Assembly (NCBI GenBank): GCA_963555985.3
Contig: OY820591.1
Span: forward strand, 384,001 to 448,000
Origin: Dehalococcoidia bacterium
Lineage (GTDB): Bacteria; Chloroflexota; Dehalococcoidia; Bin125
DNA length: 64,000 nt
Direction of reading: 5' to 3'
This document shows, piece by piece, positions 37,511-60,410 of this stretch (its first letter is position 1; each line of letters begins with the position of its first letter). The position numbers were made by a program, and so were the translations under genes. The notes under the pieces were generated by a model that worked only from the letters and a program-made list of their open reading frames with translations, had not been told where the DNA came from and searched no databases.

Positions 37511-37647
37511 ATGTGAGCACTACCAACCTCCAACCCTCACCCCACCTCCCCAAAATCTCCCCCTCAAGGGGGAGATGCCCCAGAGGGGCAGAGGGGGTGA
37601 AACGCCACATCAAACCCCCAACGACAACCACAACACACCCAACCAGT

Positions 37648-37677
37648 TTGCAACCCGAACATCAGAACATATAAACT
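37648..37677 (+). promoter_or_regulatory. Putative cassette promoter
   Basis: TTGCAA-N18-TAAACT; copy 2 has TTGCAA-N18-TAAGCT at 60168-60139. Confidence 0.55.
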
Positions 37678-37720
37678 CACCTATCCAAAACACAGGTTCC
37701 CAAGAAAGGAACGCCCCGCC

Positions 37721-38089
37721 ATGCCCTTCGACTACACCTACCAATCCTCCATGACCGGCGTCGGCCAACTCGCACACTCCAACGAAGCCGGCCACGTCCG
37801 CATCAAAGCGCTCGCCATCCTCATCCGCGAACTCTCCCCCTCCAACTCCAAGACCCGAGAGATCCACCACGCGCTCGACCTCGAACCCCACCCCGAACCC
37901 GCGCCCAAGCCCAAACCCAACCACTCCCCCCGCCTGCCCGAAGCCCCGCTCACTCCCGAGCAGAAGAAGGACTTCCACCTCCACCCGATGTTCGAGATCT
38001 ACGACGAAGTCGTCGCCTTCATGCGCGGCGAAGACGTCCCTTTGAGCGAGGACGAGCAAAGCGCCGAAGAAGAGGAAGAGCCGCAGTAA
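37721..38089 (+). CDS. Hypothetical protein (cassette ORFan)
   Basis: AAGGA RBS; paralog at 59745-60101 keeps frame across an indel. Confidence 0.7.
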   Translation: MPFDYTYQSSMTGVGQLAHSNEAGHVRIKALAILIRELSPSNSKTREIHHALDLEPHPEPAPKPKPNHSPRLPEAPLTPEQKKDFHLHPMFEIYDEVVAFMRGEDVPLSEDEQSAEEEEEPQ

Positions 38090-38097
38090 TCCCCCGA

Positions 38098-38125
38098 CCG
38101 CAAGCGGCGACCCCCTCGTTTTTTT
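38098..38125 (+). terminator. Weak terminator-like hairpin + T7 run
   Basis: CCGC-AA-GCGG then T7; conserved in both cassette copies; stem is short and offset from the T run. Confidence 0.3.
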
Positions 38126-38254
38126 CTCACAGCCCCCGTCAGGCCGCGAACCGCGACCGTCCAGTCCCTACCGTGCCCGCACCCCCAATCAGCCCCTGAC
38201 ACAATGCTCCGATAGCATCTAATCGAGACCCCAACGACCAAGCCGGAGTCCCCC

Positions 38255-38917
38255 GTGCGCTTCGCTGTCCTCGTCTTCCCCGGCACCTGGAGCGACCACG
38301 ACTGCGTCCACGCCCTCCAAGACCTCGGCCAAACCGCCGAGCGCGTCTGGCACCGCGAATCCAACCTCGACCGCTACGACGGCGTCATCCTCCCTGGAGG
38401 CTTCTCCTACGGCGACCACCTCCGCTGTGGAGCCATCGCCCGCTTCTCCCCCGTCATGCTCGCCCTCGAACGCTTCGCCCAATCAGGACGCCCCGTCTTC
38501 GGCTCCTGCAACGGCTTCCAAATCCTCTGCGAAGCCGGACTCCTCCCCGGCGCGCTCATCCGCAACGCCTCCCTCCAGTTCCGCTGCCAACCGCAAATGC
38601 TCCGTGTCGAACACGCCGACAGCGGCTTCACCAGCGCCTGCGAAGACGGACAACTCCTCCAACTCCCCATCTCCCACGGCGAGGGCCAATACCACGCAAC
38701 ACCCGAAGTCCTCGACGAACTCGAAGACGCCGGCCGCGTCCTCTTCCGCTACCACGGCGAGAACCCCAACGGCTCCCTCCGCGACATCGCCGGCATCCTC
38801 AACCCCCAGGGCAACATCCTCGGCATGATGCCCCACCCCGAACGAGCCTCCGACTCCCTCCTCGGCGGTACCGACGGCAACTACATCTGGCGCTCCATGA
38901 TCGAACGCTGGAGCTAA
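38255..38917 (+). CDS. purQ: FGAM synthase glutaminase subunit
   Basis: FPG, PGGFSYGD, CNGFQILCEAGLLPG, HGEG, NPNGS, MMPHPER. Confidence 0.96.
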   Translation: MRFAVLVFPGTWSDHDCVHALQDLGQTAERVWHRESNLDRYDGVILPGGFSYGDHLRCGAIARFSPVMLALERFAQSGRPVFGSCNGFQILCEAGLLPGALIRNASLQFRCQPQMLRVEHADSGFTSACEDGQLLQLPISHGEGQYHATPEVLDELEDAGRVLFRYHGENPNGSLRDIAGILNPQGNILGMMPHPERASDSLLGGTDGNYIWRSMIERWS

Positions 38918-38919
38918 AT

Positions 38920-38948
38920 CCGTCATTCCCGCGAAGGCGGGAATCTCG
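38920..38948 (+). repeat. REP-like family B variant
   Basis: CCGTCATTCCCGCGAAGGCGGGAATCTCG (ATTCCC-N8-GGGAAT). Confidence 0.8.
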
Positions 38949-39030
38949 AACCTCCCACTTCGCTCACGGCACAACCTGCGACGTACTCCTCAGCTCAGTT
39001 TGCACACACCCCGCACGAAACTACCCCGCC

Positions 39031-41292
39031 ATGCCCACCTACCCACCCCCTACGCACGCCCCGCCAGCACCCATCGACGACGGCATCCTCGCCCAGATCG
39101 CCCTCAGCCCCGACGAGTACGCCCGCGCCCGCAACATGCTCGGACGCGAACCGTCCGAGGTCGAACTTGGCATGATCGGCGCGCTCTGGAGCGAGCACTG
39201 CGGCTACAAACACTCCCGCCCTCTCTTCCACCACTTCCCCACCGAAGACGAACGCATCCTCACCAGCCTCGGCGAAGAGAACGCCGGAGCCATCGCCATC
39301 AGCGAGGGCTGGGTCGCGGTGATGAAGATCGAATCCCACAATCACCCCTCCGCAATCGAACCCTATGAAGGCGCAGCCACTGGCGTCGGCGGCATCGTCC
39401 GCGACATCTTCGCCATGGGCGCGCAACCGATCGCCCTGCTCGATTCGCTCCGCTTCGGCCCGCTCGATGATCCCGACGGAGGCCCCCGCAACCGCCGCCT
39501 CTGCACCGGCGTCGTCGCCGGCATCGGCGGCTACGGCAACTGCCTCGGCATCCCCACTATCGGCGGCGAACTCGTCTTCGGCGACTCCTACAGCGGCAAC
39601 CCTCTGGTTAACGCCATGTGCCTCGGCGTCGCCCCGCGCGGACAACTGATCTCCGCCACCGCTGGCCCGCCCGGTACCCGCCTCATGATCGTCGGCGCAG
39701 ACACCGGCCGCGACGGGCTGCACGGCGCCACCTTCGCCTCAGTCGAACTGGACGAATCCTCCGCCGAGCGCCGCCCAGCCGTCCAGGTGGGCAACCCCTT
39801 CCTCGAAAAGCTGCTCATGGACGCCTGCGTCGGACTCGTCCGCGACCACCGCGACTGGATCGAGGGACTCCAGGACTGCGGCGCAGCCGGCATTACCTCG
39901 TCCACCGTCGAAATGGCCGAGCGCGCCGGCGCGGGCATTCGCATCCAGACCGCCAACGTCCCCCGCCGCGAGACCGGCATGACCCCCTACGACGTAATGC
40001 TCTCCGAGTCGCAGGAGCGCATGATCGTCGCCGTCAAGCCCAATCACGTCCCCGATGTCGCCGAGTGGTTCGCCTACTGGGACCTCCACGCCGACGAGAT
40101 CGGCGAGGTCACCGACGACGGCATTGCCCGAGTCTTCGACGGCGACGCCGAAGTCGCCGCCATCCCGGTCGAACTCCTCACCACCCCGCCCGCCTATACG
40201 CCCGAAGCAATCCGCGACCCCGGTACCGCCCAACGAGCCGCCTTCGATCCAGCAACTCTCCCCGACCTCGAACCTGCCGAAGCGAACGACGCCCTGCTCC
40301 AACTCCTCGCCTCGCCCAACATCGCCTCCAAACGCTGGGTCTACCGCCAGTACGACCACCAGGTCGGTACCAACACCGTGATCACCCCCGGCTCCGACGC
40401 CGCCGTCCTGCGCCTGCGCGGACTCCAACAAGGACTCGCCCTCTGCACCGACGGCCCCGGTCGCGCCGTCGAGCTCGACCCCTACGCCGGTACCGCCCGC
40501 GCCGTCGCCGAAGCCGCTCGCAACGTCGCTTGCACCGGCGCACGCCCCGCCGCCGTCACCGACTGCCTCAACTTCGCCAACCCCGAACGTCCGCACATCT
40601 ACTACCAGCTGAGCCAGGCCATCCAGGGCATGGCCGACGCCTGCCGAGCCCTCGCTACCCCCGTCGTCAGCGGCAACGCCAGCCTCTACAACGAGTCCGA
40701 AGACGGCCCCGTCGCCCCAACCCCCGTCGTCGGAATGCTCGGCATCCTCAAAGATGTGCGCCAGGCACTCCCAATGGCTTTCCAGTCCGAAGGCGACGAA
40801 ATCTGGCTGCTAGGCGCAGACCTGGAGCAGCCAGCCGCAACGCTAGGCGGCAGCGAGTATCTGGCAGTCAGGCACGGTCTCGCAGCGGGGCCGATCACAG
40901 TCGATCTGAACGCCGAGCGAGCGCTGGTCGACACCCTCGTCGAAGCAGCCGAAGCCAACCTCCTCAAGTCAGCCCACGACTGCGCCGACGGAGGTCTGGC
41001 CGTCGCAATCGCCGAGTCCGCGATCGCAAGCGGAATCGGCGCAGAAGTGAAAGCAATCACCGGTCGTCTCGACGCAGCTCTCTTCGGCGAAGCCGGAGCG
41101 CGAGCAGTTGTGACTCTGGCGGCGGATCAAAGCGAAGCTCTGCGCCGGCTCGCAGCGCGGCATGGGCTAGGAGCCACACCGATCGGAACAGTTGGCGGAG
41201 ATCGTCTGCTGCTCGAAGGTTCGATCGACCTTCCCATCAACGCGATTGCAGAAGAATGGCAATCAGCTCTACCCAGACTGCTCGACGCCTAG
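39031..41292 (+). CDS. purL: FGAM synthase subunit PurL
   Basis: WSEHC, KIESHNHPS, GAATGVGG, SESQERM, DCLNF, SGNASLYNE. Confidence 0.96.
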   Translation: MPTYPPPTHAPPAPIDDGILAQIALSPDEYARARNMLGREPSEVELGMIGALWSEHCGYKHSRPLFHHFPTEDERILTSLGEENAGAIAISEGWVAVMKIESHNHPSAIEPYEGAATGVGGIVRDIFAMGAQPIALLDSLRFGPLDDPDGGPRNRRLCTGVVAGIGGYGNCLGIPTIGGELVFGDSYSGNPLVNAMCLGVAPRGQLISATAGPPGTRLMIVGADTGRDGLHGATFASVELDESSAERRPAVQVGNPFLEKLLMDACVGLVRDHRDWIEGLQDCGAAGITSSTVEMAERAGAGIRIQTANVPRRETGMTPYDVMLSESQERMIVAVKPNHVPDVAEWFAYWDLHADEIGEVTDDGIARVFDGDAEVAAIPVELLTTPPAYTPEAIRDPGTAQRAAFDPATLPDLEPAEANDALLQLLASPNIASKRWVYRQYDHQVGTNTVITPGSDAAVLRLRGLQQGLALCTDGPGRAVELDPYAGTARAVAEAARNVACTGARPAAVTDCLNFANPERPHIYYQLSQAIQGMADACRALATPVVSGNASLYNESEDGPVAPTPVVGMLGILKDVRQALPMAFQSEGDEIWLLGADLEQPAATLGGSEYLAVRHGLAAGPITVDLNAERALVDTLVEAAEANLLKSAHDCADGGLAVAIAESAIASGIGAEVKAITGRLDAALFGEAGARAVVTLAADQSEALRRLAARHGLGATPIGTVGGDRLLLEGSIDLPINAIAEEWQSALPRLLDA

Positions 41293-41333
41293 CGGCCTGG
41301 CTAGACTGGCTGCACTGACACGGAGAGGCACAG

Positions 41334-42254
41334 ATGGTCGCCGCACGGCGTGACTTTGAAGAACTCTTGCTGGAGCACGGCTTCTCGCCCGAACGCGCCC
41401 ACTACTGGGCATCCGCGCTCGAACGCGCTGCTCATGCGGTCACGCAGGAGGAGTTCGAGGCTGGTCTCGAGCGGGCGATTGAGCGAATGACTGCGGTCAT
41501 GCGCGAGGAGTTCGCCAAGCGTGATGTCGAAATTGCTGCGCTCAGGACCCAACTCCAATACCTCATCGATCAGCGTCAGGAGGACCTCGATCGCCTACAA
41601 GCCCAGCGTCATGAAGACCTGGAGCGCGGGCGCGCCGAGCGTCAGGAACTCATCGATCGCCTAAATGCGGAACGCCAGGAAGACCTGGAACGCTCGCAGG
41701 CTGAGCACCAGGAATTCATCGATCGCCTAAATGCGGAGCGCCAGGAAGACCTTGAGCACTCGCAGGCCGATAGCGAGCGCTTGCGCGCGGAGCGCCAGGA
41801 GGACCTCGAGCGCTCGCAGGCCGATAGCGAGCGCTTGCGCGCGGAACGTCAGGAAGACCTCGAGCGCTTGCGCGCGGAACGCCAGGAAGACCTCGAGCGC
41901 TTGCAGGCCGATAGCGAGCGCTTGCGCGCGGAGCGCCAGGAGGACCTCGAGCGCTCACAGGCCGATAGCGAGCGCTTGCGCGCGGAGCGCCAGGAGGACC
42001 TGGAGCGCTCACAGGCCGATAGCGAGCACTTGCGCGCGGAGCGCCAGGAAGACGTCGAGCGCTTGCGCGCGGAGCGCCAGGAAGACCTGGAACGCCTACG
42101 CATTCAACGCCAGGAAGACCTCGAACGTCTGCGTATCCAGCGCCAGGAAGACCTTGAGCGGGAGCGTGCCGCTCGCCAAGAGCGCCGCGCCATTGCTCTC
42201 GCCTTGGGCGGCACGCTGATCGCGCTACTCCTGAGAGTCTTCGGCGCGATCTAG
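41334..42254 (+). CDS. Membrane-anchored coiled-coil repeat protein
   Basis: ERQEDLERLRA (11 aa) and 18-aa repeats; tail LLRVFGAI like that of 16532-17035. Confidence 0.8.
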   Translation: MVAARRDFEELLLEHGFSPERAHYWASALERAAHAVTQEEFEAGLERAIERMTAVMREEFAKRDVEIAALRTQLQYLIDQRQEDLDRLQAQRHEDLERGRAERQELIDRLNAERQEDLERSQAEHQEFIDRLNAERQEDLEHSQADSERLRAERQEDLERSQADSERLRAERQEDLERLRAERQEDLERLQADSERLRAERQEDLERSQADSERLRAERQEDLERSQADSEHLRAERQEDVERLRAERQEDLERLRIQRQEDLERLRIQRQEDLERERAARQERRAIALALGGTLIALLLRVFGAI

Positions 42255-42262
42255 TGAGACAA

Positions 42263-43486
42263 TCAGTCCCCAGCCGCGGCCGAACCCTGACTCCGCACTG
42301 CCGTCACGCCCGAATCGTGCAGACGCTCGATGTCGGCCCAGTCGTAGCCCAGATCGAGCAGCGTCAACTCGGTGTCCTGACCCAGCTCTGGCGCGGCGCG
42401 TTTCACCTCAGTGTGCGTCTCCGAGAACGACACCGGGATACCCACGACCTTGTGATGCTCGAAGTGCGGGTGCTCCGCCTCTTGCAGGTAGCCGTTCAGC
42501 CAGAAATGCTCGTCTTCGTCGACTCCCTGGTAGTCGTAGACGGGGCCGCAGGGGATGCGCTGGGCGATCAGCCGCTCCAGCCACTCGTCGCGCCCGCGCG
42601 TGAGGAAGGTCGCCTCCAGTTCGCTGCGCAGCCACTCCTCGTTGTCGCGCCGCGCGAACGGATCGGTCGTGCGCTCGTCAGCCAGCAGGTCGGGACGTTC
42701 CAGGGCCTTGCACAGACCCGGCCAAGACTTCGGGTCCAACAGTCCCATCGTCAGCCACTCGCCGTCGCCGGCCTGATACCACGAGAAGGTCGCGCTGAAC
42801 GAGCGTCCCGGCTTGAGTACGAACTGGTGCTGATTGTGCAGATACGCCTGCAACGACAGCGCTTGCAAGGTCAGCATCGCCCCAAGCTGCGAGACGTCGA
42901 TCTTCTGGCCGACTCCGAAGCGCTCTCGCGCCAGCAAGGCCGTCATGATCCCGTAGGCGAACATGATCGAACCGGTCTGGTCTGCCAGACCCCATGGAGC
43001 AGTGATCGGCCGTTCGCCCGGCCCGCCGCCGAGTGCGACCATCGCGCCCGACATCCCCTGCGCGACGACGTCGAACGAACCGCGCGTCGCCCACTCGCCC
43101 TTTGGCCCGAAGCCGGAGTTGGTCGCATAGATCAGGCGCGGATTGACTTGGCGCAGGTCTTCGTAGCCCAACCCAATCGAGTCGAGATAGCCGGGCCGGA
43201 AGTTCTCGGTGAGCACGTCCGCATCGGCGATCAGCTTGTGCACGACCTCGATCGCGCCGTCGGCGCGCAGATCAAGCGTCATCGAGCGCTTGCCTCGGTT
43301 CAGCGCCTCGAAGTAGGAGCAGAAGCCGTCCGGGCCAACTCCCAGTTGGCGGCCCGGATCGCCGTTACCGGGCATCTCCACCTTGAGCACCTCCGCGCCC
43401 ATGTCGGCCAGCATCGCCGTGGCGTGGGGGCCGTTCTGGTAGCGGGTCAGATCAACTACGCGAATACCTTCGAGTGGCGCGGGCAT
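42263..43486 (-). CDS. Family III CoA transferase (CaiB/BaiF)
   Basis: PLEGIRVVDL, ADMGAEV, NRGKRS, ENFRPG, APELGQDT. Confidence 0.94.
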   Translation of the reverse strand: MPAPLEGIRVVDLTRYQNGPHATAMLADMGAEVLKVEMPGNGDPGRQLGVGPDGFCSYFEALNRGKRSMTLDLRADGAIEVVHKLIADADVLTENFRPGYLDSIGLGYEDLRQVNPRLIYATNSGFGPKGEWATRGSFDVVAQGMSGAMVALGGGPGERPITAPWGLADQTGSIMFAYGIMTALLARERFGVGQKIDVSQLGAMLTLQALSLQAYLHNQHQFVLKPGRSFSATFSWYQAGDGEWLTMGLLDPKSWPGLCKALERPDLLADERTTDPFARRDNEEWLRSELEATFLTRGRDEWLERLIAQRIPCGPVYDYQGVDEDEHFWLNGYLQEAEHPHFEHHKVVGIPVSFSETHTEVKRAAPELGQDTELTLLDLGYDWADIERLHDSGVTAVRSQGSAAAGD

Positions 43487-43553
43487 GATGTTCCTCCTCC
43501 AGGAGCAGATAGAACGAGAATATCCGATTCTCCGTCCCTATTACTCTCTCTCC

Positions 43554-44246: not shown

Positions 44247-44249
44247 GCG

Positions 44250-45538: not shown

Positions 45539-45550
45539 TCCGGGCCTCAG

Positions 45551-46426
45551 CTAGACCAGTTCGCCTGCCTCGCGTCGCCGGGCCAAATCGGCAAAGTCGA
45601 GTTGCGCCGGAGCGCCTCGGGAGAGGATTCTGTCGACCCGGTCCCTCACGATCTCGTCGAAACCTGGGTGCGGCAGGATGTAGAACGTGTCGTTGACGAT
45701 GGCGTCCCAAACGAGCGAGGCGACGTTGCCCGGATCCATAGCGGTGTGCCACCCCATCTCGGCAGCAAAGCCCTCTTGCGTGGGCTCGGCGGGCCCGCCG
45801 AACTGATCGGGCCGATTGCGCTCGGCGTTGAGCAGATTCGTATTCACAAGGCCGGGACAGAGCACGCTGGCGGAGATATTCGAATCGATTGCGCGAAGGT
45901 CGAGATAGAGGCCCTCGCTGAGCGACAGGACGCCATGCTTGGAGACGCTGTAGGCCCCGGAACCGGCAACGATCCCGCCCACCGAGGAGGTGTTGACTAC
46001 GTGCCCCGGCTCGCCGTGTTCAATCATGTGCGGCAGGAATGTCTGGATCCCGTAGAGCACGCCGTAGAAGTTGACGCCCAACACCCAGCCCCAGGTCGCG
46101 TCGGGGATGTCCCATAGATGGCGAGTCCCGCCGTCCTCGCTACTGGTCACGCCGGCGTTGTTGCAGAGCACGTGGATGTTGCCAAAGCGGTCGATCGCCT
46201 GGTCGCGCAGCGATTCAATTGATTCGCGCTGGATCGTGTTGACTTCGATGCCGACGACGCTGCGCTCCTCTTGCTCCAGTCGCGTGACGGCCGCTTTGAG
46301 CGCGTCGGTCTCGATATCGGCGAGGACCACGTTCATGCCCTCGGCGGCGAAGCGCTCGGCGAAGGCGAAGCCCATGCCCGAGGCGGCGCCCGTGACGACC
46401 GCGGTGGCGTTGCTGAAATCGCGCAT
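45551..46426 (-). CDS. SDR oxidoreductase (array member 5)
   Basis: TGAASGMG, NNAG, YSVSK. Confidence 0.93.
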   Translation of the reverse strand: MRDFSNATAVVTGAASGMGFAFAERFAAEGMNVVLADIETDALKAAVTRLEQEERSVVGIEVNTIQRESIESLRDQAIDRFGNIHVLCNNAGVTSSEDGGTRHLWDIPDATWGWVLGVNFYGVLYGIQTFLPHMIEHGEPGHVVNTSSVGGIVAGSGAYSVSKHGVLSLSEGLYLDLRAIDSNISASVLCPGLVNTNLLNAERNRPDQFGGPAEPTQEGFAAEMGWHTAMDPGNVASLVWDAIVNDTFYILPHPGFDEIVRDRVDRILSRGAPAQLDFADLARRREAGELV

Positions 46427-46438
46427 GTTGCTGCTCCC

Positions 46439-47335
46439 CTAGACGATCTCGCCCTGTGCCCGGCGTTGCATCATCTTCTCGAAATCGACCTCGACCGGCT
46501 GTTGGCCGTCCAGGATCGCCTCGACTCGCTCGCGGACGATATCTCGCCAGCCGTCGTGGGGCAGGATGTAGAGCTGATCGTTGACCATCGCCTGCCAGAC
46601 CAATTCAGCGACATCGGACGGATCCATGCCTCCACCCAGGAAGATCCGAGAGGCGGCGCGCTGTGCTTCGTTGGCCTCGATCGATTCGCCAAATTCGCTG
46701 GGGCGATTACGTTCCGCCTCGGTGATCTGCGTGTTGACAAATCCCGGGCAGAGGACCGACGCGGAGATATTGGAGTTCGCGGTTCGCAGATGATGCCAGA
46801 GACCCTCGGTCAACGTCAGCACACCGTGCTTCGAGACGCTGTATGCAGATGCACCGGGGATCAGTCCGGCGACTGAGGCCGTGTTGACGATGTGGCCTTC
46901 CTCGCCGTGCTCAAGCATGTGCGGGACGAACACTTGCAAGCCGTAGAGCACGCCCCAGAAGTTGACGCCCATCACCCAGTCCCAGGTCGAATCGGGCACT
47001 TCCCAGACCGGAACCGCGCCGGTTCCGGGACCGAGGCCGCCGTCCCGGCGCGAAGTCACGCCGGCGTTGTTGCAGATCACGTGGATCTTGCCAAAGCGCT
47101 CGATCGCCTGATCGCGGAGGTTCTCAAGCGTCTCGCGGCGCATCGTATTGACCTCGACCCCGATGACGTTGCGCTCCTGCTGTTCGAGCCGGGTGACGGC
47201 GGCATTGAGCGCGTCGGTTTCGATATCGGCCAGGACCACGTTCATGCCCTCGGCGGCGAAGCGCTCGGCGAAGGCGTAGCCCATGCCGCTTGCTGCACCG
47301 GTGATGACTGCCGTCCCGCCGGAAAATTCGCGCAT
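46439..47335 (-). CDS. SDR oxidoreductase (array member 4)
   Basis: TGAASGMG, NNAG, YSVSK. Confidence 0.93.
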   Translation of the reverse strand: MREFSGGTAVITGAASGMGYAFAERFAAEGMNVVLADIETDALNAAVTRLEQQERNVIGVEVNTMRRETLENLRDQAIERFGKIHVICNNAGVTSRRDGGLGPGTGAVPVWEVPDSTWDWVMGVNFWGVLYGLQVFVPHMLEHGEEGHIVNTASVAGLIPGASAYSVSKHGVLTLTEGLWHHLRTANSNISASVLCPGFVNTQITEAERNRPSEFGESIEANEAQRAASRIFLGGGMDPSDVAELVWQAMVNDQLYILPHDGWRDIVRERVEAILDGQQPVEVDFEKMMQRRAQGEIV

Positions 47336-47398
47336 GGTCCATCCTCTCAGAGTGTTCTGAGGTGTCGTTCGACGATGGGTGCAGTCTACGAGTGGCTC

Positions 47399-48292
47399 TT
47401 AGCTCTGTCCGCCGCCGGTCTGGCGGCTCGTGAGTTCAACGGGCAATCGCGCTGCCGGGACTGTCCGGGCAATGATGTTCTCGACTCGCTGACGTACGAA
47501 ATCGTCCCACTCGGGATGCGGTAGCACGTAGCAGCGTTCTTCGATGATCGCTTGCAGCACCTGCTCCGCGACGTTGGCCGGATCCATGCCGGATGCGAGG
47601 AAGGCGTCAAAGGCTGCCGCTTCGCCTGCGGACCGTTCGCCGACGCCGCCGTACTGATCGGGACGATTGCGGTCGGCGTTCATGATCTGGGTTTGCACTG
47701 CACCCGGACAGAGCACGGATGCGCCGATCTTCGAGCCGATCCGCTCGAGGTTCTGGTGCAGGCCTTCGGTCAGCGTGAGGACGCCATGCTTCGAGACGCT
47801 GTAAGCGCTGCCGCCCGGGGTGATGCCGGCGACCGAGGAGGTGTTGACGACGTGTCCCTCCTCGCCGTGAGCGACCATATGCGGGAGGAAGGTCTGCACG
47901 CCGTACAGCACGCCCCAGAAGTTCACTCCGATCACCCACTCCCAGATGCTGTCTTCCACATCCCAGATATTGATCGCATCATCGCCAATGCTCATCGCGT
48001 CCTGAAAGCTGAACACGCCGGCATTGTTGCAGAGGATGTGGATGTTGCCGAAGCGCTCGATGATCTCGTCGCGGGCGCGTTCCAGCGATTCGCGCTGCAT
48101 CGTGTTCACGGCGACGCCCATCACAGAGCGCTCTTCCTGTTCCAGCCGCTGGACCTGGGCCTGGAGCGCGTCTTCCTGGATGTCGGCGAGCACGACGTTC
48201 ATGCCCTCCGAGGCGAAACGCTCGACCATCGCCAGCCCGATCCCGCTGGCGCCGCCGGTGACGACTGCGGTCTTGCCTGCAAACTCGCGCAC
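47399..48292 (-). CDS. SDR oxidoreductase (array member 3)
   Basis: TGGASGIG, NNAG, YSVSK; GTG start. Confidence 0.93.
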   Translation of the reverse strand: MREFAGKTAVVTGGASGIGLAMVERFASEGMNVVLADIQEDALQAQVQRLEQEERSVMGVAVNTMQRESLERARDEIIERFGNIHILCNNAGVFSFQDAMSIGDDAINIWDVEDSIWEWVIGVNFWGVLYGVQTFLPHMVAHGEEGHVVNTSSVAGITPGGSAYSVSKHGVLTLTEGLHQNLERIGSKIGASVLCPGAVQTQIMNADRNRPDQYGGVGERSAGEAAAFDAFLASGMDPANVAEQVLQAIIEERCYVLPHPEWDDFVRQRVENIIARTVPAARLPVELTSRQTGGGQS

Positions 48293-48312
48293 GTTGGAAT
48301 CCTCTCCGGTGA

Positions 48313-49209
48313 TCAGACTTCTTGGCCCGCCGCCCGGCGGCGGAGCATCTCTTCCATGTCAACCGAGATTGGCGCTTCTCTGGCGAGCACGTGCTCAACC
48401 CGGCCGCGCACGACATCGTCCCAGGCGGGATGCGGCAAGATGTAGCAGCGCTGCTCGACGATCGAGTCGAAGACGATATCCGCGACCCGATCCGGATCCA
48501 TTCCGCCGCCGAGCATCATCGTGATCGCCTGTTCCTGTTCCGCGGTCCGCTCTGTCGTCCCGCCGAACTCCTCGGGCCGGTTGCGATCGGCGTGACCGAT
48601 ATTGGTGTTGACGAAGCCGGGACAGAGCACGGATGCGCTCAGGTTGGCGTTCATCGCCTGGAACTGCTGGTAGAGACCTTCGGTCAGCGTCAGTACCGCG
48701 TGCTTGGACACGCTGTAGGCGCCGCCGCCCGGCATCAGCCCGGCCAGAGAGGCCGTGTTGACGATGTGCCCGTCCTCGCCGTGTTCGAGCATGTGCGGCA
48801 CGAAGACCTGGATGCCGTACAGGACGCCCCAGAAGTTGACGCCCATGACCCACTCCCAGGTCTCGTCCGGCACCTGCCACGAGCCCTGAACGGTGCCGTC
48901 GGGGAAGACGCCCGCATCCTCTCCGCCGGCGACGCCGGCGTTGTTGGCCAGGATGTGGATGTTGCCGTACTGCTCGATCGTCTGGTCGCGGAGATTCTCA
49001 AGCGCTTCGCGCCGCATCGTGTTGACGATCACGCCGAGCACGTTGCGCTCTTCCTGCTCGAGTCGGGTCACCTGCGCGTTGAGCGCGTCCTCCTCGATGT
49101 CGGCGAGAACGACGTTCATGCCCTCCGCCGCAAAGCGTCGGGCGAATGCCAATCCCATGCCGCTGGCCGCACCGGTGACGACTGCGGTCTTGCCTTCGAA
49201 TTCGCGCAT
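48313..49209 (-). CDS. SDR oxidoreductase (array member 2)
   Basis: TGAASGMG, NNAG, YSVSK. Confidence 0.93.
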   Translation of the reverse strand: MREFEGKTAVVTGAASGMGLAFARRFAAEGMNVVLADIEEDALNAQVTRLEQEERNVLGVIVNTMRREALENLRDQTIEQYGNIHILANNAGVAGGEDAGVFPDGTVQGSWQVPDETWEWVMGVNFWGVLYGIQVFVPHMLEHGEDGHIVNTASLAGLMPGGGAYSVSKHAVLTLTEGLYQQFQAMNANLSASVLCPGFVNTNIGHADRNRPEEFGGTTERTAEQEQAITMMLGGGMDPDRVADIVFDSIVEQRCYILPHPAWDDVVRGRVEHVLAREAPISVDMEEMLRRRAAGQEV

Positions 49210-49229
49210 GTTTTGATCCCTTCCGACTG

Positions 49230-50126
49230 TCAGACCTGCTCGCCGGCTGCGCGGCGGCGCATCAGTTCCTCGAAGTCCAGCGTGATCGGCGCGCCGCGCG
49301 CTAGCACGTTCTCAACGCGGCCGCGAACGATGTCGTCCCAGCCCGGGTGCGGCAGGATGTAGCAGCGCTGCTCGACGATCGAGTCGAAGACGATGTCCGC
49401 CACCTGGCTGGGGTCCATGCCGCCGCCGAGCATGGCGATGATGCCCTGTTCGGCCTCCGGCGTGATCTCAATCTGGTCGCCGAACTCTTCGGGCCGATTA
49501 CGTTCGGCGTGGCCGATATTGGTGTTCACGAGTCCGGGGCAGAGCGCGGAAGCGCTGAGGTTGGCGCCCATCGCCTCGAAACTCTGGTACAGCCCCTCGG
49601 TCAGCGCGAGCACGCCGTGCTTGGAGACGCTGTAGGCGCCACCGCCCGGGATCAGACCAGCCAGTGAGGCGGTGTTGACGATGTGGCCCTCTTCGCCGTG
49701 TTCGAGCATGTGCGGGATGAACACCTGGCAGCCGTAGAGCACGCCCCAGAAGTTCACGCCCATCACCCATTCCCAGGTGCGGTCGGGCACGTCCCAGGGG
49801 CCGCGGATCTCCCCTTCTGCGTCAAATCCGCTGTCGTCCAGCCCGGCCACACCGGCGTTGTTGCAGAGGATGTGGATGTTGCCGAACTCTGCAATTGTCT
49901 GGTCGCGCAGGTTCTCCAACGTCTCGCGGCGCATGGTGTTGACGACCACGCCGAGCACATTGCACTCTTCCTGTTCGAGTTGGGTCACCTGTGCGTTGAG
50001 GGCGTCTTCTTCGATATCCGCGAGGACGACGTTCATGCCTTCGGCGGCGAAGCGCCGGGCGAAGGCGAGTCCCATCCCGCTCGCGGCGCCGGTGACGACT
50101 GCCGTCTTGCCTGCGAATTCGCGCAT
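49230..50126 (-). CDS. SDR oxidoreductase (array member 1)
   Basis: TGAASGMG, NNAG, YSVSK. Confidence 0.93.
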   Translation of the reverse strand: MREFAGKTAVVTGAASGMGLAFARRFAAEGMNVVLADIEEDALNAQVTQLEQEECNVLGVVVNTMRRETLENLRDQTIAEFGNIHILCNNAGVAGLDDSGFDAEGEIRGPWDVPDRTWEWVMGVNFWGVLYGCQVFIPHMLEHGEEGHIVNTASLAGLIPGGGAYSVSKHGVLALTEGLYQSFEAMGANLSASALCPGLVNTNIGHAERNRPEEFGDQIEITPEAEQGIIAMLGGGMDPSQVADIVFDSIVEQRCYILPHPGWDDIVRGRVENVLARGAPITLDFEELMRRRAAGEQV

Positions 50127-51049: not shown

Positions 51050-51838
51050 CTACAGCGGGCGTTCGCCGAAGAACTCGAAGAGGGGCGGGTACTTGTTGAT
51101 GTCTGCGCCGCCGTTGAGTTGGACGGTTTGGCCTGTCATCAGGGATGAGGCGTCGGAGGCGAGCCAGAGGGCGAGCTGGGCTACATCTTCGGGCTCGCCG
51201 ACGCGGCCGAGCGGGGCTTCGGCGGCGAAGGCGTCTTCCAGGCCCGGCACGTCGCGGATGCCCTGGGTGAGCGGCGTGCGGATGAGGCCGGGCCCGATGC
51301 TGTTGACGCGGATGTTGTGCCGTCCCAGCTCGAGTGCGGAGACTTTGGTCAGCATGGCCACTCCCGCTTTCGCGGAGCAGTAGGCGGACAGACCCTCCGT
51401 CGCTTGGATGCTGTTCAACGAGGCCGTGTTGATGATCGAGCCGCCCGAGCCTTGCTCGATTAGATGCTTGGCCTCGTGCTTGATGCAGAGGAAGACGCCG
51501 GTGAGGCAGACGTCGATCACGCGCTGGAACTGCGAGAGCGGATAATCCTGGATTGGCGACCAGCCGCCGATGCCGGCGTTGTTGAAGGCGATGTCGAGGC
51601 GGCCAAAGCGTTCGACGCAGGTTGCAACCATGTTGGCAACGTCGTTCTCGTTGGTGACGTCGGCGCTGATTGCGATGGCCTGGGAGCCGAGCTCGCGGGC
51701 GGTCTCGGCTGCGCCGTCGGCGTTGCGGTCGGCGATGGCGACCTGCGCGCCCTCCTCGGCGAAGCGTTTCGCGGCTGCGAGTCCGATGCCGGATGCGGCG
51801 CCGGTGATCAGGGCGGCTTTGCCGTCGAGTTGTCCCAT
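51050..51838 (-). CDS. SDR oxidoreductase
   Basis: TGAASGIG, NNAG, YCSAK, PLGRVG. Confidence 0.93.
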   Translation of the reverse strand: MGQLDGKAALITGAASGIGLAAAKRFAEEGAQVAIADRNADGAAETARELGSQAIAISADVTNENDVANMVATCVERFGRLDIAFNNAGIGGWSPIQDYPLSQFQRVIDVCLTGVFLCIKHEAKHLIEQGSGGSIINTASLNSIQATEGLSAYCSAKAGVAMLTKVSALELGRHNIRVNSIGPGLIRTPLTQGIRDVPGLEDAFAAEAPLGRVGEPEDVAQLALWLASDASSLMTGQTVQLNGGADINKYPPLFEFFGERPL

Positions 51839-51859
51839 CGTTTGCTCCAATCCGTTTGG

Positions 51860-52663
51860 CTACTCGCTTCGCGGCCGCCTCAACTCGGATTCCAGCACGT
51901 TGAATCCGGGCGGCAGCTCGCTGACTGTGATTCCGCCGTCGACGTAGAAGAGTTGGCCCGATACCCAGGGGCTGGCGTCGCTGGCCAGGTAGAGCGCCAT
52001 TTGGGCGATGTCGTCGGGTTCGCCGAGGCGGCCCAATGGTGTTGCGCCGATCATTGCTTCGTCGAAGCCGGCTACGTTGCGGGCACGGGCGGTGAGCGGG
52101 GTCTTGGTGTGACCCGGGCCGATTGCGTTGACGCGGATGCCGTATTCGCCCAGCTCGAGCGCGGAGACTTTGGTCAGCATGGCTACGCCCGCTTTGGCGG
52201 AGCAATAGGCGCTGAGGCCTTTGGTCGCCTGAGTTGCGTTGATGCTGGCGGTATTGATTAAGGAGCCGCCCTCGCCTTGCGCGAGCAGTTGTTTCGACTC
52301 GTGCTTGAGGGAGAGGAAGACGCCGGTCAGGCAGACGTCGACAGTGCGCTGGAACTGCTCCAGTGGATGATCGTGGATCGGCGCTGCGCCGGCGATGCCG
52401 GCGTTGTTGAAGCCGATGTCGAGGCGGCCGAAGCGATCTACGCAGGCCGCGACCATGGCGGCTACGTCGTCTTCGCTGGTGACGTCTCCGGTGATGGCCA
52501 GGGCGCTCGCTCCAAGTTCTCGTGCGGTCTCGTTCACGAGGTCGGCGTTGCGGTCGACCATTGTTACTTGAGCGCCTTGTTCGACGAACAGTTGCGCGGT
52601 GGCCAACCCGATTCCTGAGGCTGCGCCGGTGATCAGCGCGACTTTGCCGTCGAGTGCTGCCAT
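51860..52663 (-). CDS. SDR oxidoreductase (paralog)
   Basis: TGAASGIG, NNAG, YCSAK. Confidence 0.93.
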   Translation of the reverse strand: MAALDGKVALITGAASGIGLATAQLFVEQGAQVTMVDRNADLVNETARELGASALAITGDVTSEDDVAAMVAACVDRFGRLDIGFNNAGIAGAAPIHDHPLEQFQRTVDVCLTGVFLSLKHESKQLLAQGEGGSLINTASINATQATKGLSAYCSAKAGVAMLTKVSALELGEYGIRVNAIGPGHTKTPLTARARNVAGFDEAMIGATPLGRLGEPDDIAQMALYLASDASPWVSGQLFYVDGGITVSELPPGFNVLESELRRPRSE

Positions 52664-54823: not shown

Positions 54824-54840
54824 CCCGCTAAGCTGAGGCC

Positions 54841-55541: not shown

Positions 55542-56524
55542 TTCCCCCGAGCGCCCGACGCGACCGCTGCGCGATTCTCATGGGTGGTTTGGGGGGGGAT
55601 TGAGCAGCCTCCGGTGACGAAGATGCGCGTGTTGCCGACGCTTGCGGCTTCGGCTGCCTGCGCTCGAATCTCGTCGGCTCCCAACTCTCCGAGGCCGGTG
55701 CGGCTGACGCCGCCCATCACCGCCTTGTCGGTTTGCTTCCAGACCTCCGACAAGCTGGAGTTCGTCGGATCGCGGTCGTCCCAGTTGAAGGCTTGGACGG
55801 GGTAGTCGAGGACGTCGGCGAGCATGTTTTGGTGGTGGCAGACGTGGAGGATGTTGAATTCGGCGTCGCGGATGGCGTCGAGCACCTGGAGGTCGTAGGG
55901 GCGGCCGAACTCGCGGTAGAAGTCGGGGGTGGAGTTGGCGTGGGAAGCCCACTGGAGGGGGGCGTAGAAGACGCCCGATGCGCCGGCGTTGAGGTTGGCG
56001 CGGCTGTAGTTGATGATCGTCTGGGTGATTCGTCCGATTGCGCCGTGCAGGGCGGCCGGGGCTTCGCGGGCGGCCTGCTTGAGCGCGCGCGGATGACCGA
56101 ACATCAGCCCGACCACCGACATTGGCGAGAAGACGGTCTGGACGACGTCGACTGCGCCGTTGGTGCGTTCGATTACGCGGCGGGTTGACTCGACGTGCTC
56201 GCCGAAGACGCCGCGCTCGGCGTGAACGGGCACGACTTCGTGGAGTTGTTCGAGCTCTTCGAGCGCCGGTCGGATCAGGGTTTGGTTGGTTTGTTCCTGC
56301 GGCGGGGTATAGATCGCGCCCCAGGCTTCGGGGAACATCGACCAGCGGGGATTGATCTTGATGAAGTCCCAGTCGTAGGCCTCGTACTGCTCGCAGGTGG
56401 CGCCGACCAGATCGTCCAGGCTCCACTCGCGGAGGAAGTCGTGTCCCCAGAGCGAGGCAGGGGCCTGATCGACGGGTTCTCCGGCGATTGCGGCTCGTAC
56501 TCGTTCGCGCTTCGTCATGGTCAT
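55538..56524 (-). CDS. Uroporphyrinogen decarboxylase-family protein
   Basis: RERVRAAI.GEPVD, TVFSP, ILHVC, GGCSIP; lacks the HemE MRQAGR motif. Confidence 0.8.
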   Translation of the reverse strand: MTMTKRERVRAAIAGEPVDQAPASLWGHDFLREWSLDDLVGATCEQYEAYDWDFIKINPRWSMFPEAWGAIYTPPQEQTNQTLIRPALEELEQLHEVVPVHAERGVFGEHVESTRRVIERTNGAVDVVQTVFSPMSVVGLMFGHPRALKQAAREAPAALHGAIGRITQTIINYSRANLNAGASGVFYAPLQWASHANSTPDFYREFGRPYDLQVLDAIRDAEFNILHVCHHQNMLADVLDYPVQAFNWDDRDPTNSSLSEVWKQTDKAVMGGVSRTGLGELGADEIRAQAAEAASVGNTRIFVTGGCSIPPQTTHENRAAVASGARGN

Positions 56525-56562
56525 GTCGTGTTCCTTTCTAGCGCAGGCGCAGCGGGTGCGGT

Positions 56563-57909: not shown

Positions 57910-57963
57910 GACGATCAACCTTTCGCGCTGGCCCTCCGGCGGCCGGGGCTGAGCATGGTTGGC

Positions 57964-58713
57964 TCAGATGCCTTGGGTCATGCCGCCGTCGATGATGAAT
58001 TCGACGCCGTTCATGTATTCGGAGTCGTCGGAGGCGAGGAAGAGGGCGAGTTTGGCGACTTCTTCGGCTTCGGCGAGGCGTCCGTAGGGGACGCGGCGCA
58101 CGAGCTGGTCGCCCATGCCCTGCTCGATCATGGGGTGCTGCTCCAGCATCGGGGTTTCGATCAGGCCGGGATGGATCGAGTTGACGCGCACGCCGGCAGG
58201 CGCGAACTCGTTCATCGCGGTCTTGGTCATGCCGCGCACGGCCCACTTGCTCGCCGTGTAGGCGACCATGTTGGCTGGGCCGCGTAGACCGGCGACCGAG
58301 GAGATGTTGACGATCGAGCCGGAGCCGGCTGCCGCCATCATCGGCCCGACGTGCTTCAAGCCGAGGAATACACCGAGCTGGTTGATCTCGATGATGCGCA
58401 TGTACTCCTCAACCGTCGTGTCGGCGATGGAGCTCGACCTGAAGATACCCGCGTTGTTGAGCAACGCGTCGACCTTGCCGTAGTCCTCAAGCACTTCGGC
58501 GACGATTGTCTGCCACTCGGATTCCTGGGTCACATCGTGATGCAGATAGCGCGCGCCCTCGATCGAGGCTGCGGTCGTTTTCCCTTCGGCGTCCAGCACG
58601 TCGGTGAGGATGACGTGAGCGCCTTCGGCGGCGAACAGGCGACCTTCGGCTGCGCCTTGTCCTCGCGCCCCGCCGGTGATCAATGCCACCTTGCCGTCGA
58701 GCCGTCCTGCCAT
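57964..58713 (-). CDS. SDR (3alpha,20beta-HSD-like)
   Basis: TGGARGQG, YTASKWAVRGMTK, NSIHPG. Confidence 0.93.
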   Translation of the reverse strand: MAGRLDGKVALITGGARGQGAAEGRLFAAEGAHVILTDVLDAEGKTTAASIEGARYLHHDVTQESEWQTIVAEVLEDYGKVDALLNNAGIFRSSSIADTTVEEYMRIIEINQLGVFLGLKHVGPMMAAAGSGSIVNISSVAGLRGPANMVAYTASKWAVRGMTKTAMNEFAPAGVRVNSIHPGLIETPMLEQHPMIEQGMGDQLVRRVPYGRLAEAEEVAKLALFLASDDSEYMNGVEFIIDGGMTQGI

Positions 58714-58753
58714 CGTCGCTTGCCTGCTTCCGTTCTCGGTCTGTGTAACTAGC

Positions 58754-58806
58754 CGGACCCCCCTCTGTCACTTCGTGACATCTCCCCCCGCGATGCGGGG
58801 GGAGAG
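58754..58806 (-). repeat. REP-like family A, copy 4
   Basis: Reverse complement CTCTCCCCCCGCATCGCGGGGGGAGATGTCACGAAGTGACAGAGGGGGGTCCG. Confidence 0.9.
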
Positions 58807-58820
58807 TGTGCCGAGCTTTC

Positions 58821-59570
58821 TTAGATTCCCTGAGTCATGCCTCCGTCGATGATGAACTCGACGCCGTTCATGTACTCGGAGTCGTCGGAGGCGAGGAAGA
58901 GGGCGAGTTTGGCGACTTCTTCGGCTTCGGCGATGCGTCCGTAGGGGATGCGGCGGACGAGTTGGTCGGTCATGCCCTGTTCGATCACGGGCAGCTGGTG
59001 CAGCATCGGGGTTTCGATCAGGCCGGGATGGATCGAGTTGACGCGCACGCCGGAGGGTGCGAACTCGCTCATGGCGACTTTGGTCATGCCGCGCACGGCC
59101 CACTTGCTGGCGGAGTAGGCGACCGATCCCGCGCCGCCGCGCATTCCGGCGATCGAGGAGATATTGATGATCGATCCCGACCCAGCCGCAACCATCACCG
59201 GCCCGACATGCTTCAGACCGAGGAAGACGCCGATCTGATTGATGTCGATCACGAAGCGATAGTCCTCAAGCGTGGTCTGATTAATTGGGCTGCTGCGGAA
59301 GACGCCCGCATTGTTCACGAACGCATCGATCTTGCCGAAGTCTTCCATCACCTCCGCGACTACGGCTTCCCACTCCGACTCTTGGGTCACGTCGTGGTGC
59401 AGATAGCGCGCGCCTTCGATTGAGGCCGCGGTCTCGTTGCCCTCGGAGTCGAGCACGTCAGTGAGCACGACCTGCGCGCCTTCGGCGGCGAAGACTCGTC
59501 CCTCCGCCGCGCCTTGTCCGCGTGCGCCGCCAGTGATCAGCGCCACTTTGCCGTCAAGCCGTCCCGCCAT
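58821..59570 (-). CDS. SDR (tandem paralog)
   Basis: MAGRLDGK start at 59570; C-terminus nearly identical to 57964-58713. Confidence 0.93.
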   Translation of the reverse strand: MAGRLDGKVALITGGARGQGAAEGRVFAAEGAQVVLTDVLDSEGNETAASIEGARYLHHDVTQESEWEAVVAEVMEDFGKIDAFVNNAGVFRSSPINQTTLEDYRFVIDINQIGVFLGLKHVGPVMVAAGSGSIINISSIAGMRGGAGSVAYSASKWAVRGMTKVAMSEFAPSGVRVNSIHPGLIETPMLHQLPVIEQGMTDQLVRRIPYGRIAEAEEVAKLALFLASDDSEYMNGVEFIIDGGMTQGI

Positions 59571-59654
59571 GGTCGCCTGCCTTTCTGATCCGTCGGAAGA
59601 CAGGGGCAGGGTAGCTGCACGCAATCGGAGATTCCTATGGGGGTGGGAGGAGCG

Positions 59655-60410
59655 GGGCACGGTAGGGACTGGGCGGTCGCGATTCGCGGCCTCGCGGGGC
59701 TGTGAGAAAAAAACGAGGTGGGGTCGCCGCTTGCGGTCGGGGGATTACGGCGGCTCTTCCTCTTCCTCGAGGCTGTCGTCGTCGTCCGGCAGAGGGACGT
59801 CTTCGCCGCGCATGAGGGCGACGGCGATGGCGTGGGGATGGAGGTGGAGTTCCTTCTTCTGCTCAGGGGTGAGCGGAGCTTCGGGCAGGCGGGGGGAGTG
59901 GTTGGCTCGGGGTTTGGGCGCGGGTTCGGGATGGGGTTGGAGGTCGAGCGCGTGGTGGATCTCGCGGGTCTTGGCGTTGGAGGGGGAGAGTTCGCGGATG
60001 AGGAGGGCGAGCGCTTTGATGCGGACGTGGCCGGCTTCGTCGGAGTGGGCGAGTTGGCCGACGCCGGTCATGGTGGATTGGTAGGTGTGGGGGAAGGGCA
60101 TGGCGGGTGTTCCTTTCTTGGGGAATGCAGGACTCTTGAGCTTATCTGGATGGATGTTCGGATTGCAAGTTGGTTGGGTGTGTTGTGGTTATCGGAAGGT
60201 TGGGTGCTTGATGTGGCGTTTCACCCCCTCTGCCCCGTTGGGGCATCTCCCCCTTGAGGGGGAGAGGGGAGCTGGAGTTGGGGTGTCTGTGCTGTGATGT
60301 GGCGTTTCACCCCCTCTGCCCCCCCGCCTTCGCGGGGGCAGGCTCTTCGGGGCATCTCCCTCCCCGCCTGCGCGGGGACAGGCTCTTGAAGGGGAGATTT
60401 TGGGGAGGTG
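59655..60410 (-). repeat. ORFan cassette copy 2 (with duplicated, nested REP)
   Basis: Inverted homolog of 37545-38180. Confidence 0.85.
59745..60101 (-). CDS. Hypothetical protein (cassette ORFan paralog)
   Basis: MPFPHTYQSTMTGVGQLAHS...; close paralog of 37721-38089. Confidence 0.7.
   Translation of the reverse strand: MPFPHTYQSTMTGVGQLAHSDEAGHVRIKALALLIRELSPSNAKTREIHHALDLQPHPEPAPKPRANHSPRLPEAPLTPEQKKELHLHPHAIAVALMRGEDVPLPDDDDSLEEEEEPP

Follow-up and report, generated by a model that had tools for sequence, protein, structure and literature searches.

A multicopy, REP-associated unit of a Dehalococcoidia genome, derived by truncation from an orphan terminase-type cassette

The stretch of DNA analysed here, called the window, comprises 64,000 nt of contig OY820591.1 (positions 384,001 to 448,000, forward strand) of the Dehalococcoidia bacterium assembly GCA_963555985.3. 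It carries two copies of a short unit in which hairpins of the repetitive extragenic palindrome (REP) type precede a gene for a small protein and a conserved tail. A repeat search of the window placed these copies in inverted orientation at 37478-38178 (+) and 59656-60418 (-), 21.5 kb apart and about 85% identical. Six collinear inverted pairs of arms join 37535-38178 to 59655-60418 (290 nt at 90% identity, 121 nt at 83%, 67 nt at 94%, 58 nt at 83%, 61 nt at 74% and 45 nt at 91%), and the likeness of the two copies in a DNA search is far above chance (E = 0 to 1e-205). An earlier note, made from the sequence alone, had described them as a self-contained ORFan cassette present twice. The repeat search and direct reading bear out both copies and their positions. 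The count of two holds inside the window; genome-wide there are 28 copies of a main lineage and two of a diverged one. Nor is the unit self-contained: it is the 5' portion of a cassette of two genes, the second of which encodes a protein resembling the large subunit of phage terminases (TerL).

Directly 5' of copy 1, sequence reading places a REP1 hairpin with its tail (CCGTCATACCCGCG...CGCGGGTATCTCG..GTGAGCA...CCAACC; 37478-37528, +). A second hairpin, REP2 (CTCCCCCTCAAGGGGGAGATGCCCC...GGGGCAGAGGGGGTGAAACGCCAC; 37545-37615, +), lies between REP1 and the core of the copy. It is an optional part, missing from many copies, and contigs from three sequencing runs connect 37528 to 37622 via nine other letters, which is the REP2-less form of other copies. 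The 5' core, also delimited by reading (37620-37720, +; left core CGACAACCACAACACAC), holds a -35-like box TTGCAA at 37648-37653, an 18-nt spacer, a -10-like box TAAACT at 37672-37677 and a ribosome-binding site (RBS), AAAGGA, at 37705-37710. It is followed by an open reading frame (ORF) of 122 aa (P0002; 37721-38089, +) with the helix variant 'b', MFEIYDEVVAF, and an acidic tail ...EEEEEPQ. In an alignment with five full cassettes, the last part, 38090-38178 (+), is what decay has left of the initial ~45 codons of the TerL-like gene; it ends ...ACCGTGCC, and the 38178 side forms a sharp right end. Copy 2 is laid out likewise on the minus strand. An array of REP2- and REP3-type hairpins (60199-60418), identified by reading and by the repeat search, lies upstream of a 5' core (60102-60194; CGATAACCACAACACAC, RBS AAAGGA) with boxes TTGCAA at 60168-60163 and TAAGCT at 60144-60139, again 18 nt apart; then come an ORF of 118 aa (P0001; 59745-60101) with the C-terminal variant 'a' (HAIAVAL) and the TerL-remnant tail with the right end of the unit (59656-59744).

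Both ORFs encode a His/Pro-rich middle and an acidic tail, and the 12-nt difference between them is in frame, as the earlier note had it. Its promoter is a more qualified case. The TTGCAA-N18 boxes are present, and this box pattern recurs in 24 of 28 copies; the boxes nevertheless score under the sigma-70 threshold of a consensus promoter scan, which returned no promoter-like site in either window unit. The RBS, in the form AAAGGA, is found in both window copies and in 28/28 genome-wide. A tail of ~90 nt with a run of seven T follows each ORF and is conserved, as described earlier; its supposed hairpins fared less well, as the predicted RNA fold is not above that of shuffled sequence (z of +1.5 and +0.2 for the two copies). 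A terminator scan found none on the unit's own strand, with a single match on the opposite strand in copy 1 and none in copy 2, and an Rfam scan gave two sub-threshold chance matches only. The frame that is kept open is the plus frame (27/28 copies), with a coding-type GC content at third codon positions (GC3); antisense ORFs overlap it, for example at 37610-38059 on the minus strand.

The assembly is a metagenome-assembled genome (MAG) of 3.33 Mb in 11 contigs, 96% complete and of 65% GC. It contains 30 copies of the small gene, 28 recovered by DNA search and tblastn and two by a wider profile. Unit DNA gave 28 long matches at 74-100% identity, in addition to many matches to the REP part alone. 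Of the 28 ORF copies that tblastn found, a single one is degraded and the other 27 have an open frame (108-126 aa); 19 copies form a subfamily A and eight a subfamily B. The copies do not look like an assembly artefact, as they are 75-93% identical rather than identical, each has unique flanks, and the locus also occurs in a contig of a second strain. Where contigs from four runs of the Logan collection cover the window, most measure a few hundred bases and none spans the unit; their summed depth is ~10-50 times as great over the unit as over its flanks, as for a repeat. Contigs C2 to C11 are second-strain versions of regions of contig C1, mostly 94-99% identical to them; they account for the 7.5% 'contamination' of the assembly and allow alleles to be compared, contig C9 being the counterpart of window positions 26072-43052. 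The GC skew of contig C1 gave no clear origin or terminus.

What the unit derives from is shown by five subfamily-B copies, where the small ORF runs into the beginning of an overlapping 473-aa ORF, that of the TerL-like protein. All five of these ORFs are intact, with protein identities of 87-100% and DNA identities of 86-96%. The protein matches the Pfam families Terminase_6N (4.9e-8; 33.3 bits, cut-off 22) and Terminase_3 (1e-7; 32.1 bits, cut-off 23.2) over residues 52-259 and the PHROG_2 family, 'terminase large subunit', over residues 51-440 (1.6e-26); further TerL PHROGs match residues 256-289 and 349-439. Its score of 38.5 bits against TIGR01547, the PBSX-family TerL, falls below the cut-off of 105, and the protein is a distant relative of that equivalog, not a member. 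In an AlphaFold2 (AF2) model the N-terminal domain has a per-residue confidence (pLDDT) of 70-92, and residues 234-473 are mostly below 50. Foldseek matches of the model were led by D6E TerL (4e-13) and the P74-26 ATPase domain (1e-10), then Sf6, HK97 and T4. Across 40 homologues the Walker A motif GGAMGGGKT, the Walker B residues D155-E156 and the triplet S186-N187-P188 are invariant, as are three acidic nuclease motifs (D285, D351 and D430/433/435); a Pfam scan gave no nuclease-domain match. Pairwise dN/dS among the five paralogs is 0.10-0.28, at a dS of 0.12-0.31. Several homologues in the genomes G001-G004, G010, G017 and G022 match in two pieces (~1-305 and 312-470) that sit in one frame of 490-730 aa, which points to an insertion between the ATPase and nuclease halves.

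Aligned with the full cassettes, the conserved 3' tail of the earlier description turns out to be the decayed 5' end of the TerL-like gene, with its start codon lost and 25-40 nt deleted. The T7 run corresponds to the codons F-F-P of TerL and the end of the unit to the codons T-V-P. The genome thus holds five full cassettes of ~1.9 kb; in the other 25 copies, the solo units, only the first 45-70 codons of TerL remain. The whole set spans 0.55-1.9 kb, with one or two genes per copy. Truncation occurred independently at no fewer than three points among the solo units: after T-V-P (class 1; all A-type solo units and copy 2387637), after G-Y-G (class 2; copy 2481430) and after Walker A (class 3; copy 759471). 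The class-1 right end is exact and common to ~20 loci, where it stands beside unrelated unique DNA. A spurious alignment of tail and TerL is unlikely in view of the read-through copy 759471. These alignments firmly show that the solo units arose by truncation of an orphan terminase-type cassette. The diverged lineage, detected with the wider profile, has its two copies at 905.7 and 775.6 kb of contig C1, each followed by a TerL stub. In these copies (G000:C1:905300-906500 and 775300-776300) the small ORF, ...NPPLPFSPKAVVAKLQHQANNGPPYIQ..., resembles the type of the related genus g7, and TerL is truncated at or just ahead of the Walker A lysine.

The small protein is harder to place. It consists of an N-terminal three-helix domain, a Pro/His-rich linker, a short helix and the acidic tail; in the AF2 model of the copy-1 protein, helices at residues 7-18, 24-38 and 43-51 have a pLDDT of 82-95, and the rest is of low confidence and mostly disordered. 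The window proteins have no match in Pfam, NCBIfam or PHROGs, no terminase family appears among the matches of 27 members scanned, and sequence and profile searches of the PDB returned nothing. Fold matches to small terminase subunits (TerS) are weak and non-significant: the oligomerisation domain of an SPP1-like TerS (3zqp_E) at E = 6 with a root-mean-square deviation of 1.7 over 58 columns, TerS entries of BFVD at E 0.5-2, and NV1 TerS (Z 3.9) and 3zqm (Z 3.4) amid many unrelated helical matches. A profile search of 1.84 billion representatives retrieved 85 proteins at E <= 0.001; of the 81 new ones, 76 are small proteins without a Pfam family, and five are long HEAT/ARM-repeat proteins matched through a helical hairpin. 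A complex prediction for the TerL-like protein and the window small protein scored 0.01, which is not evidence either way. If the label 'TerS-like' is used, it would rest on position, size and coupling, not on homology.

Genes for virion formation were sought with four Pfam families in this 96%-complete genome. Phage_portal, SPP1_portal and Phage_capsid were not found; Head-tail_con gave no match either, though its control was silent too. TerL_ATPase (PF03354) was likewise not found genome-wide, and Terminase_6N occurs only in the five cassette copies, whose flanks are REP arrays and unrelated genes, with no portal or capsid neighbours. We therefore rejected a prophage remnant: among the families searched virion genes are missing, and the five TerL copies are not decaying scraps because they are intact and under purifying selection. 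A phage satellite akin to the phage-inducible chromosomal islands (PICI) was also rejected, as the units of 0.55-1.9 kb and one or two genes are not the 5-15 kb island with integrase, regulatory and replication genes. PADLOC assigned no family to the TerL-like protein or to either window small protein. That the unit holds no transposase agrees with the earlier note: no transposase family matches the small ORF or the TerL-like ORF. The small ORF as a fragment of a known transposase, which the note had named as grounds for refutation, finds no support, since the ORF has no Pfam, NCBIfam or PHROG match and the genome has no Y1 transposase. An IS200-type TnpA or REP-associated tyrosine transposase (RAYT) was discarded in the same way, for want of a family match and with Y1_Tnp (PF01797) absent from the genome, the control being positive in 6/14 reference genomes.

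The cassette is restricted to one family of Dehalococcoidia: in a class-wide sample, it was present in five of six other genomes of the same family and in 0/144 from other families. At E <= 1e-5, database searching gave 199 relatives of the TerL-like protein, the best 120 of which are 55-97% identical; the named ones among these 120 are Chloroflexota/Chloroflexi MAG proteins, mostly annotated 'phage terminase large subunit', and the records of several relatives suggest more than one TerL-like copy per genome. An overlapping upstream small ORF exists in 10 of 11 loci examined in relatives. These small ORFs have a helical N-terminus with a motif ...GPAYV...A.KALA...GL or ...RLRA.ELLG...G.F, and most have an acidic tail ending in DEPP or DEPQ. 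With a broad profile, the small gene was matched in all 13 genomes of g7 (1-20 matches each), in 6/9 of genus g8 (1-2 each) and in 0/18 of seven other genera. The small gene outnumbers TerL there too: g7 genomes have up to 20 small-ORF matches, whereas a search of four g7 genomes for TerL at E <= 1e-30 gave no more than four matches. The REP1 hairpin occurs in 10/13 genomes of g7, 8/9 of g8 and 0/18 of the others.

Both window copies are insertions relative to the gene order of relatives. Seven genomes of the same family (G010, G017, G018, G019, G009, G026 and G022) have 82-300 nt between the genes that flank copy 1, versus ~830 nt here, and six (G015, G006, G011, G010, G017 and G018) have 21-331 nt between the thioesterase and short-chain dehydrogenase/reductase (SDR) genes that flank copy 2, versus ~863 nt here; the DNA of the unit core is matched in no relative. 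A check of copy number and empty sites, as the earlier note had proposed, thus gave 30 copies and flanking genes that lie close together in relatives. A joint connecting 37273 to 38256, in one short contig from one run, is too weak to count as an empty site. The unit is indeed a discrete, multicopy segment inserted between unrelated genes: 7TM-HD and PurQ/PurL-like genes around copy 1, 4HBT thioesterase and SDR genes around copy 2. The earlier suggestion that the two copies might invert the ~21-kb segment between them finds no support: the relative G017, which lacks the units, has the four flanking genes in the same order and orientation (G017:C45 21465-22900 and 40178-41549). An independent two-copy ORFan mobile unit whose chief effect is this inversion would suit a window that, taken alone, holds just two inverted copies 21.5 kb apart; with 30 copies in the genome, their derivation from a TerL-containing cassette and a flanking gene order that shows no inversion, we regard it as hardly credible.

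A REP hairpin lies directly upstream, in one orientation, in 28/28 main-lineage copies. REP1 is a general REPIN-like repeat of this genome, often present as inverted pairs: the strict hairpin (CCGTCATNCCCGCG-N5-9-CGCGGGNATNNCG) occurs 112 times in the genome and a shorter core motif 319 times on contig C1, where the REP2 motif has 109 matches. REP1 with its tail occurs 40 times and is followed by the unit's left core within 160 nt in 22 of these. Downstream, a GC3-filtered ORF call found the next gene co-oriented with the unit in 20/26 cases (one-sided binomial ~0.005 by our own arithmetic) and the upstream gene in 13/26; in ~15 of the 20, the called gene starts within ~80 nt of the unit end. 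In the window, the PurQ-like amidotransferase gene (38255-38917, +; GATase_5, 3.6e-39) is co-oriented with copy 1 and starts 77 nt past it, and the SDR gene (58821-59570, -; adh_short_C2, 1e-62) is co-oriented with copy 2, its ATG at 59570 lying 86 nt past the unit. It is firmly established, in our view, that a discrete segment has been copied to many REP-adjacent intergenic sites. The REP array 5' of copy 1 (window 37401-37488) differs from that of contig C9 by ~63 nt of REP sequence within surroundings that are 98-100% identical, and this strain difference indicates that REP arrays turn over faster than the position of the unit. A REP1-variant hairpin (TCCGTCATTCCCGCGAAGGCGGGAATCTCG) also separates the purQ-like from the purL-like gene, at 38918-38950. 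In run X1 the summed contig depth of its bin was ~29,600 against ~16 in the flanks, and short matches to this region were found in the relatives G018, G026, G033 and G010.

The small gene is expressed-looking and evolves as a protein-coding gene. The GC fractions at its codon positions are 0.73/0.42/0.85, every length variant is in frame, and simulated neutral evolution left all 17 analysed type-A copies open with a probability of 0.01. Its dN/dS, a comparison suggested in the earlier note, is 0.40 within subfamily A, 0.41 within B and 0.57 between them; with an open ORF and some purifying selection, the note's statement that the unit is under selection stands. The N-terminal 55 codons have an A-versus-B dN/dS of 1.38, with low dS, and dS in the 5' half of the gene is 0.10-0.17 against ~0.5 further on. 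Among A-type copies, identity is highest in the tail (0.94), lower in the ORF (0.90) and lowest in the 100 nt upstream (0.81). The promoter, N-terminal, C-terminal helix (a-d) and acidic-tail types are combined as in a mosaic, with four gametes in 11 of 15 character pairs. The C9 allele of copy 1 has flanks and promoter that are 99-100% identical to those of the window, an ORF body in which 30-47 of 50 bases agree per block, and a different C-terminal variant; the difference is a gene conversion tract between strains. On such sequence comparisons it can be stated firmly that the unit keeps an expressed-looking gene under moderate constraint and recombines with its paralogs.

This variability could be read as the mark of an arms race, in which the diversified small proteins are decoy small-terminase subunits that mislead the packaging motors of invading phages. 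The mosaic, variable C-terminal segments, the elevated N-terminal dN/dS between subfamilies, the allelic replacement visible between strains and the promoter-like region of each copy are all compatible with such a role in defence. We nevertheless find it improbable: PADLOC gave no match, the neighbours are unrelated housekeeping genes with no defence genes consistently among them, the overall dN/dS of 0.4 gives no sign of pervasive positive selection, and the intact TerL-like copies are left unexplained.

The low dS in the small gene's first half and the non-coding tail, which is the most conserved part of the unit, recall cis-acting DNA sites, and pac sites lie inside the terS genes of phages of the P22/SPP1/Sf6 type. 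The units might then be packaging beacons, the small protein binding a pac-like site in its own gene or tail and starting, with the TerL-like motors, headful packaging of chromosomal DNA into capsids that come from an infecting phage or from an unrecognised head module, so that the ~30 units would form a chromosome-wide system of gene transfer, hijacking or interference. Such a system would fit a TerL-like protein whose ATPase and nuclease motifs are kept under purifying selection in a genome that yielded neither portal nor capsid nor any further terminase family. We judge it quite unlikely, since capsid and portal genes were not detected (with the four families above, one control being silent), we know of no helper phage, and packaging explains transfer from cell to cell, not arrival at new sites within a genome.

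A further possibility dispenses with the terminase. The units may have spread passively, by REP-mediated ectopic recombination or small segmental duplications, and been kept because the host uses the units as portable promoter/leader modules for the downstream gene, or the small protein as a regulator. Every copy adjoins a REP array, REPs are abundant, gene conversion among copies is demonstrable, 20/26 units point into a nearby co-oriented gene with no terminator-like site on their own strand, and the ends lack the usual marks of transposition. However, ~20 units share an exact right end in former TerL codons, and REP-REP recombination does not explain this common end, since REPs are lacking on that side of most units. 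Moreover, the excess of the small gene over TerL also arose in other genera, one of them without the REP1 pattern (G187), and a mere promoter module would not need the conserved open frame. Passive spread with host use thus seems to us unlikely.

The explanation that we favour, and to which as a whole we would give an even chance, is that the unit is a truncated and amplified derivative of a capsid-less 'terminase-only' cassette, copied selfishly by means of the TerL-like protein and its small partner. The solo units would most likely be non-autonomous selfish derivatives. A break-and-copy, recombination-dependent process would most probably copy them into REP-bearing intergenic sites. The TerL-like nuclease/ATPase would start it in trans, assisted by the small protein as its DNA-recognition or adaptor subunit. 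The small gene and the conserved tail would be retained because they carry cis and trans functions for copying, and the units would be tolerated because, having no terminator, they allow read-out into the downstream gene. A stronger version, which we think unlikely, has a new class of mobile element driven by the capsid-less terminase itself: the small partner would guide the TerL-like protein to a cis site located in either the small gene or its tail, and the resulting break would copy the cassette and, in trans, the ~25 solo units to new REP-adjacent intergenic sites. In a twin version, held with the same reserve, the units would be packaging starts distributed over the chromosome.

Several observations weigh against selfish copying by the terminase. 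The unit contains no recombinase, and nothing shows strict transposition: inspection of the unit ends revealed no terminal inverted repeats (TIR), and there is no target-site duplication (TSD), the longest strings common to the flanks being 5-12 nt at inconsistent positions. To our knowledge, no terminase mobilises DNA within a genome. The searches revealed no homology of the small protein to small terminases, and its putative role as a TerL partner is drawn from gene position and coupling. The copies are not young, with type-A ORF identities of 0.84-0.96 and the dS of the TerL paralogs given above, and insertion polymorphism was not seen, the sole strain comparison (C9) having the unit at the same site. 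The low dN/dS of every TerL paralog fits selection at the level of the host or in cis better than unchecked decay of selfish copies. Finally, REP1 and the cassette co-occur only at the level of genera (g1, g7 and g8) and their copy numbers are unlinked, as illustrated by G187, with 19 small ORFs and no REP1, and G184, with 829 REP1 and a single small ORF. REP1 as a strict requirement or a product of the cassette was rejected, because the copy numbers do not track each other across genomes.

The closest known counterparts are the terS-terL packaging modules of pac-type tailed phages such as P22, SPP1 and Sf6. As in those modules, the small gene lies directly upstream of the TerL-like gene and is translationally coupled to it, and the second protein has the family, fold and motif matches of TerL; in contrast, virion genes were not found here, the copies are multiple and dispersed in each genome, and the small protein has no TerS family match, while its gene both outlasts and outnumbers TerL, with 25 solo units to five full cassettes. 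The satellites of the Staphylococcus aureus pathogenicity island (SaPI) and PICI type are islands of 5-15 kb with their own small terminase, integrase, regulators and replication genes, present in one or few copies and using foreign capsids. Like them, the units are chromosomal elements that encode a TerS-like protein without capsid genes of their own, but they measure 0.55-1.9 kb, have one or two genes and no integrase, and number ~30.

Transposable elements offer other parallels. A short multicopy derivative that outnumbers its parent, discrete ends and a strict intergenic association with REPs recall both miniature inverted-repeat transposable elements (MITEs) and the REP-targeting insertion sequences (IS) that Tobes and Pareja reportedly described in 2006. 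Unlike MITEs, which are non-coding, the present derivative keeps a selected protein gene, the parent enzyme is of the terminase type, and TIRs, TSDs and a transposase were not found. In REP/RAYT (REPIN) systems RAYT genes are bordered by REPs, and the present cassette is likewise bordered by dispersed REP hairpins that often form inverted pairs; unlike in those systems, the genome has no Y1 (RAYT/IS200-type) transposase and REP1 numbers do not track the cassette. Terminases are known to us only from virions, gene transfer agents and satellites that use capsids, and our full-text search of the literature, whose coverage left out subscription-only papers, turned up no account of terminase cassettes that are orphan, stand-alone or multicopy. 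The small terminase of the Rhodobacter capsulatus gene transfer agent (RcGTA), gp1, binds the ATPase domain of TerL through its C-terminus and binds DNA weakly, according to Sherlock et al. (2019, PMC6854486). Both systems involve phage-derived terminases resident in the host, and gp1 offers a precedent for a streamlined small subunit kept by the cell; the RcGTA terminase is single-copy and lies in a head-tail cluster, unlike the five full and 25 truncated copies found here, for which a structural cluster was not found.

In these genomes, then, a complete-looking terminase pair persists over a long time, in several copies under purifying selection, where head genes were not found, and its small gene has been amplified to dozens of expressed-looking, inter-recombining copies. 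Were the terminase to move the units, this would constitute a new mechanism of mobilisation without a transposase, and if the stronger engine version were true, the solo units would be non-autonomous elements obliged to keep an expressed gene. Were the units packaging starts, they would open a new, chromosome-wide route of gene transfer in an uncultured, ecologically important group. For MAG studies there is a practical consequence as well, since genes annotated 'phage terminase large subunit' in these bacteria could be mistaken for prophage markers.

The segment between the two units has features of its own. Nine paralogs of the adh_short (SDR) family, all on the minus strand, occupy 45551-50126, 51050-52663 and 57964-59570; five tandem genes for ~298-aa proteins, with a period of ~910 nt and DNA identities of 65-76%, and two pairs make this a striking local expansion. 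Closer to copy 1, an ORF of 306 aa without a Pfam match (41334-42254, +) contains periodic repeats of 33, 54 and 87 nt at 41556-42172, which encode units rich in E, R, Q, D and L and of coiled-coil-like appearance.

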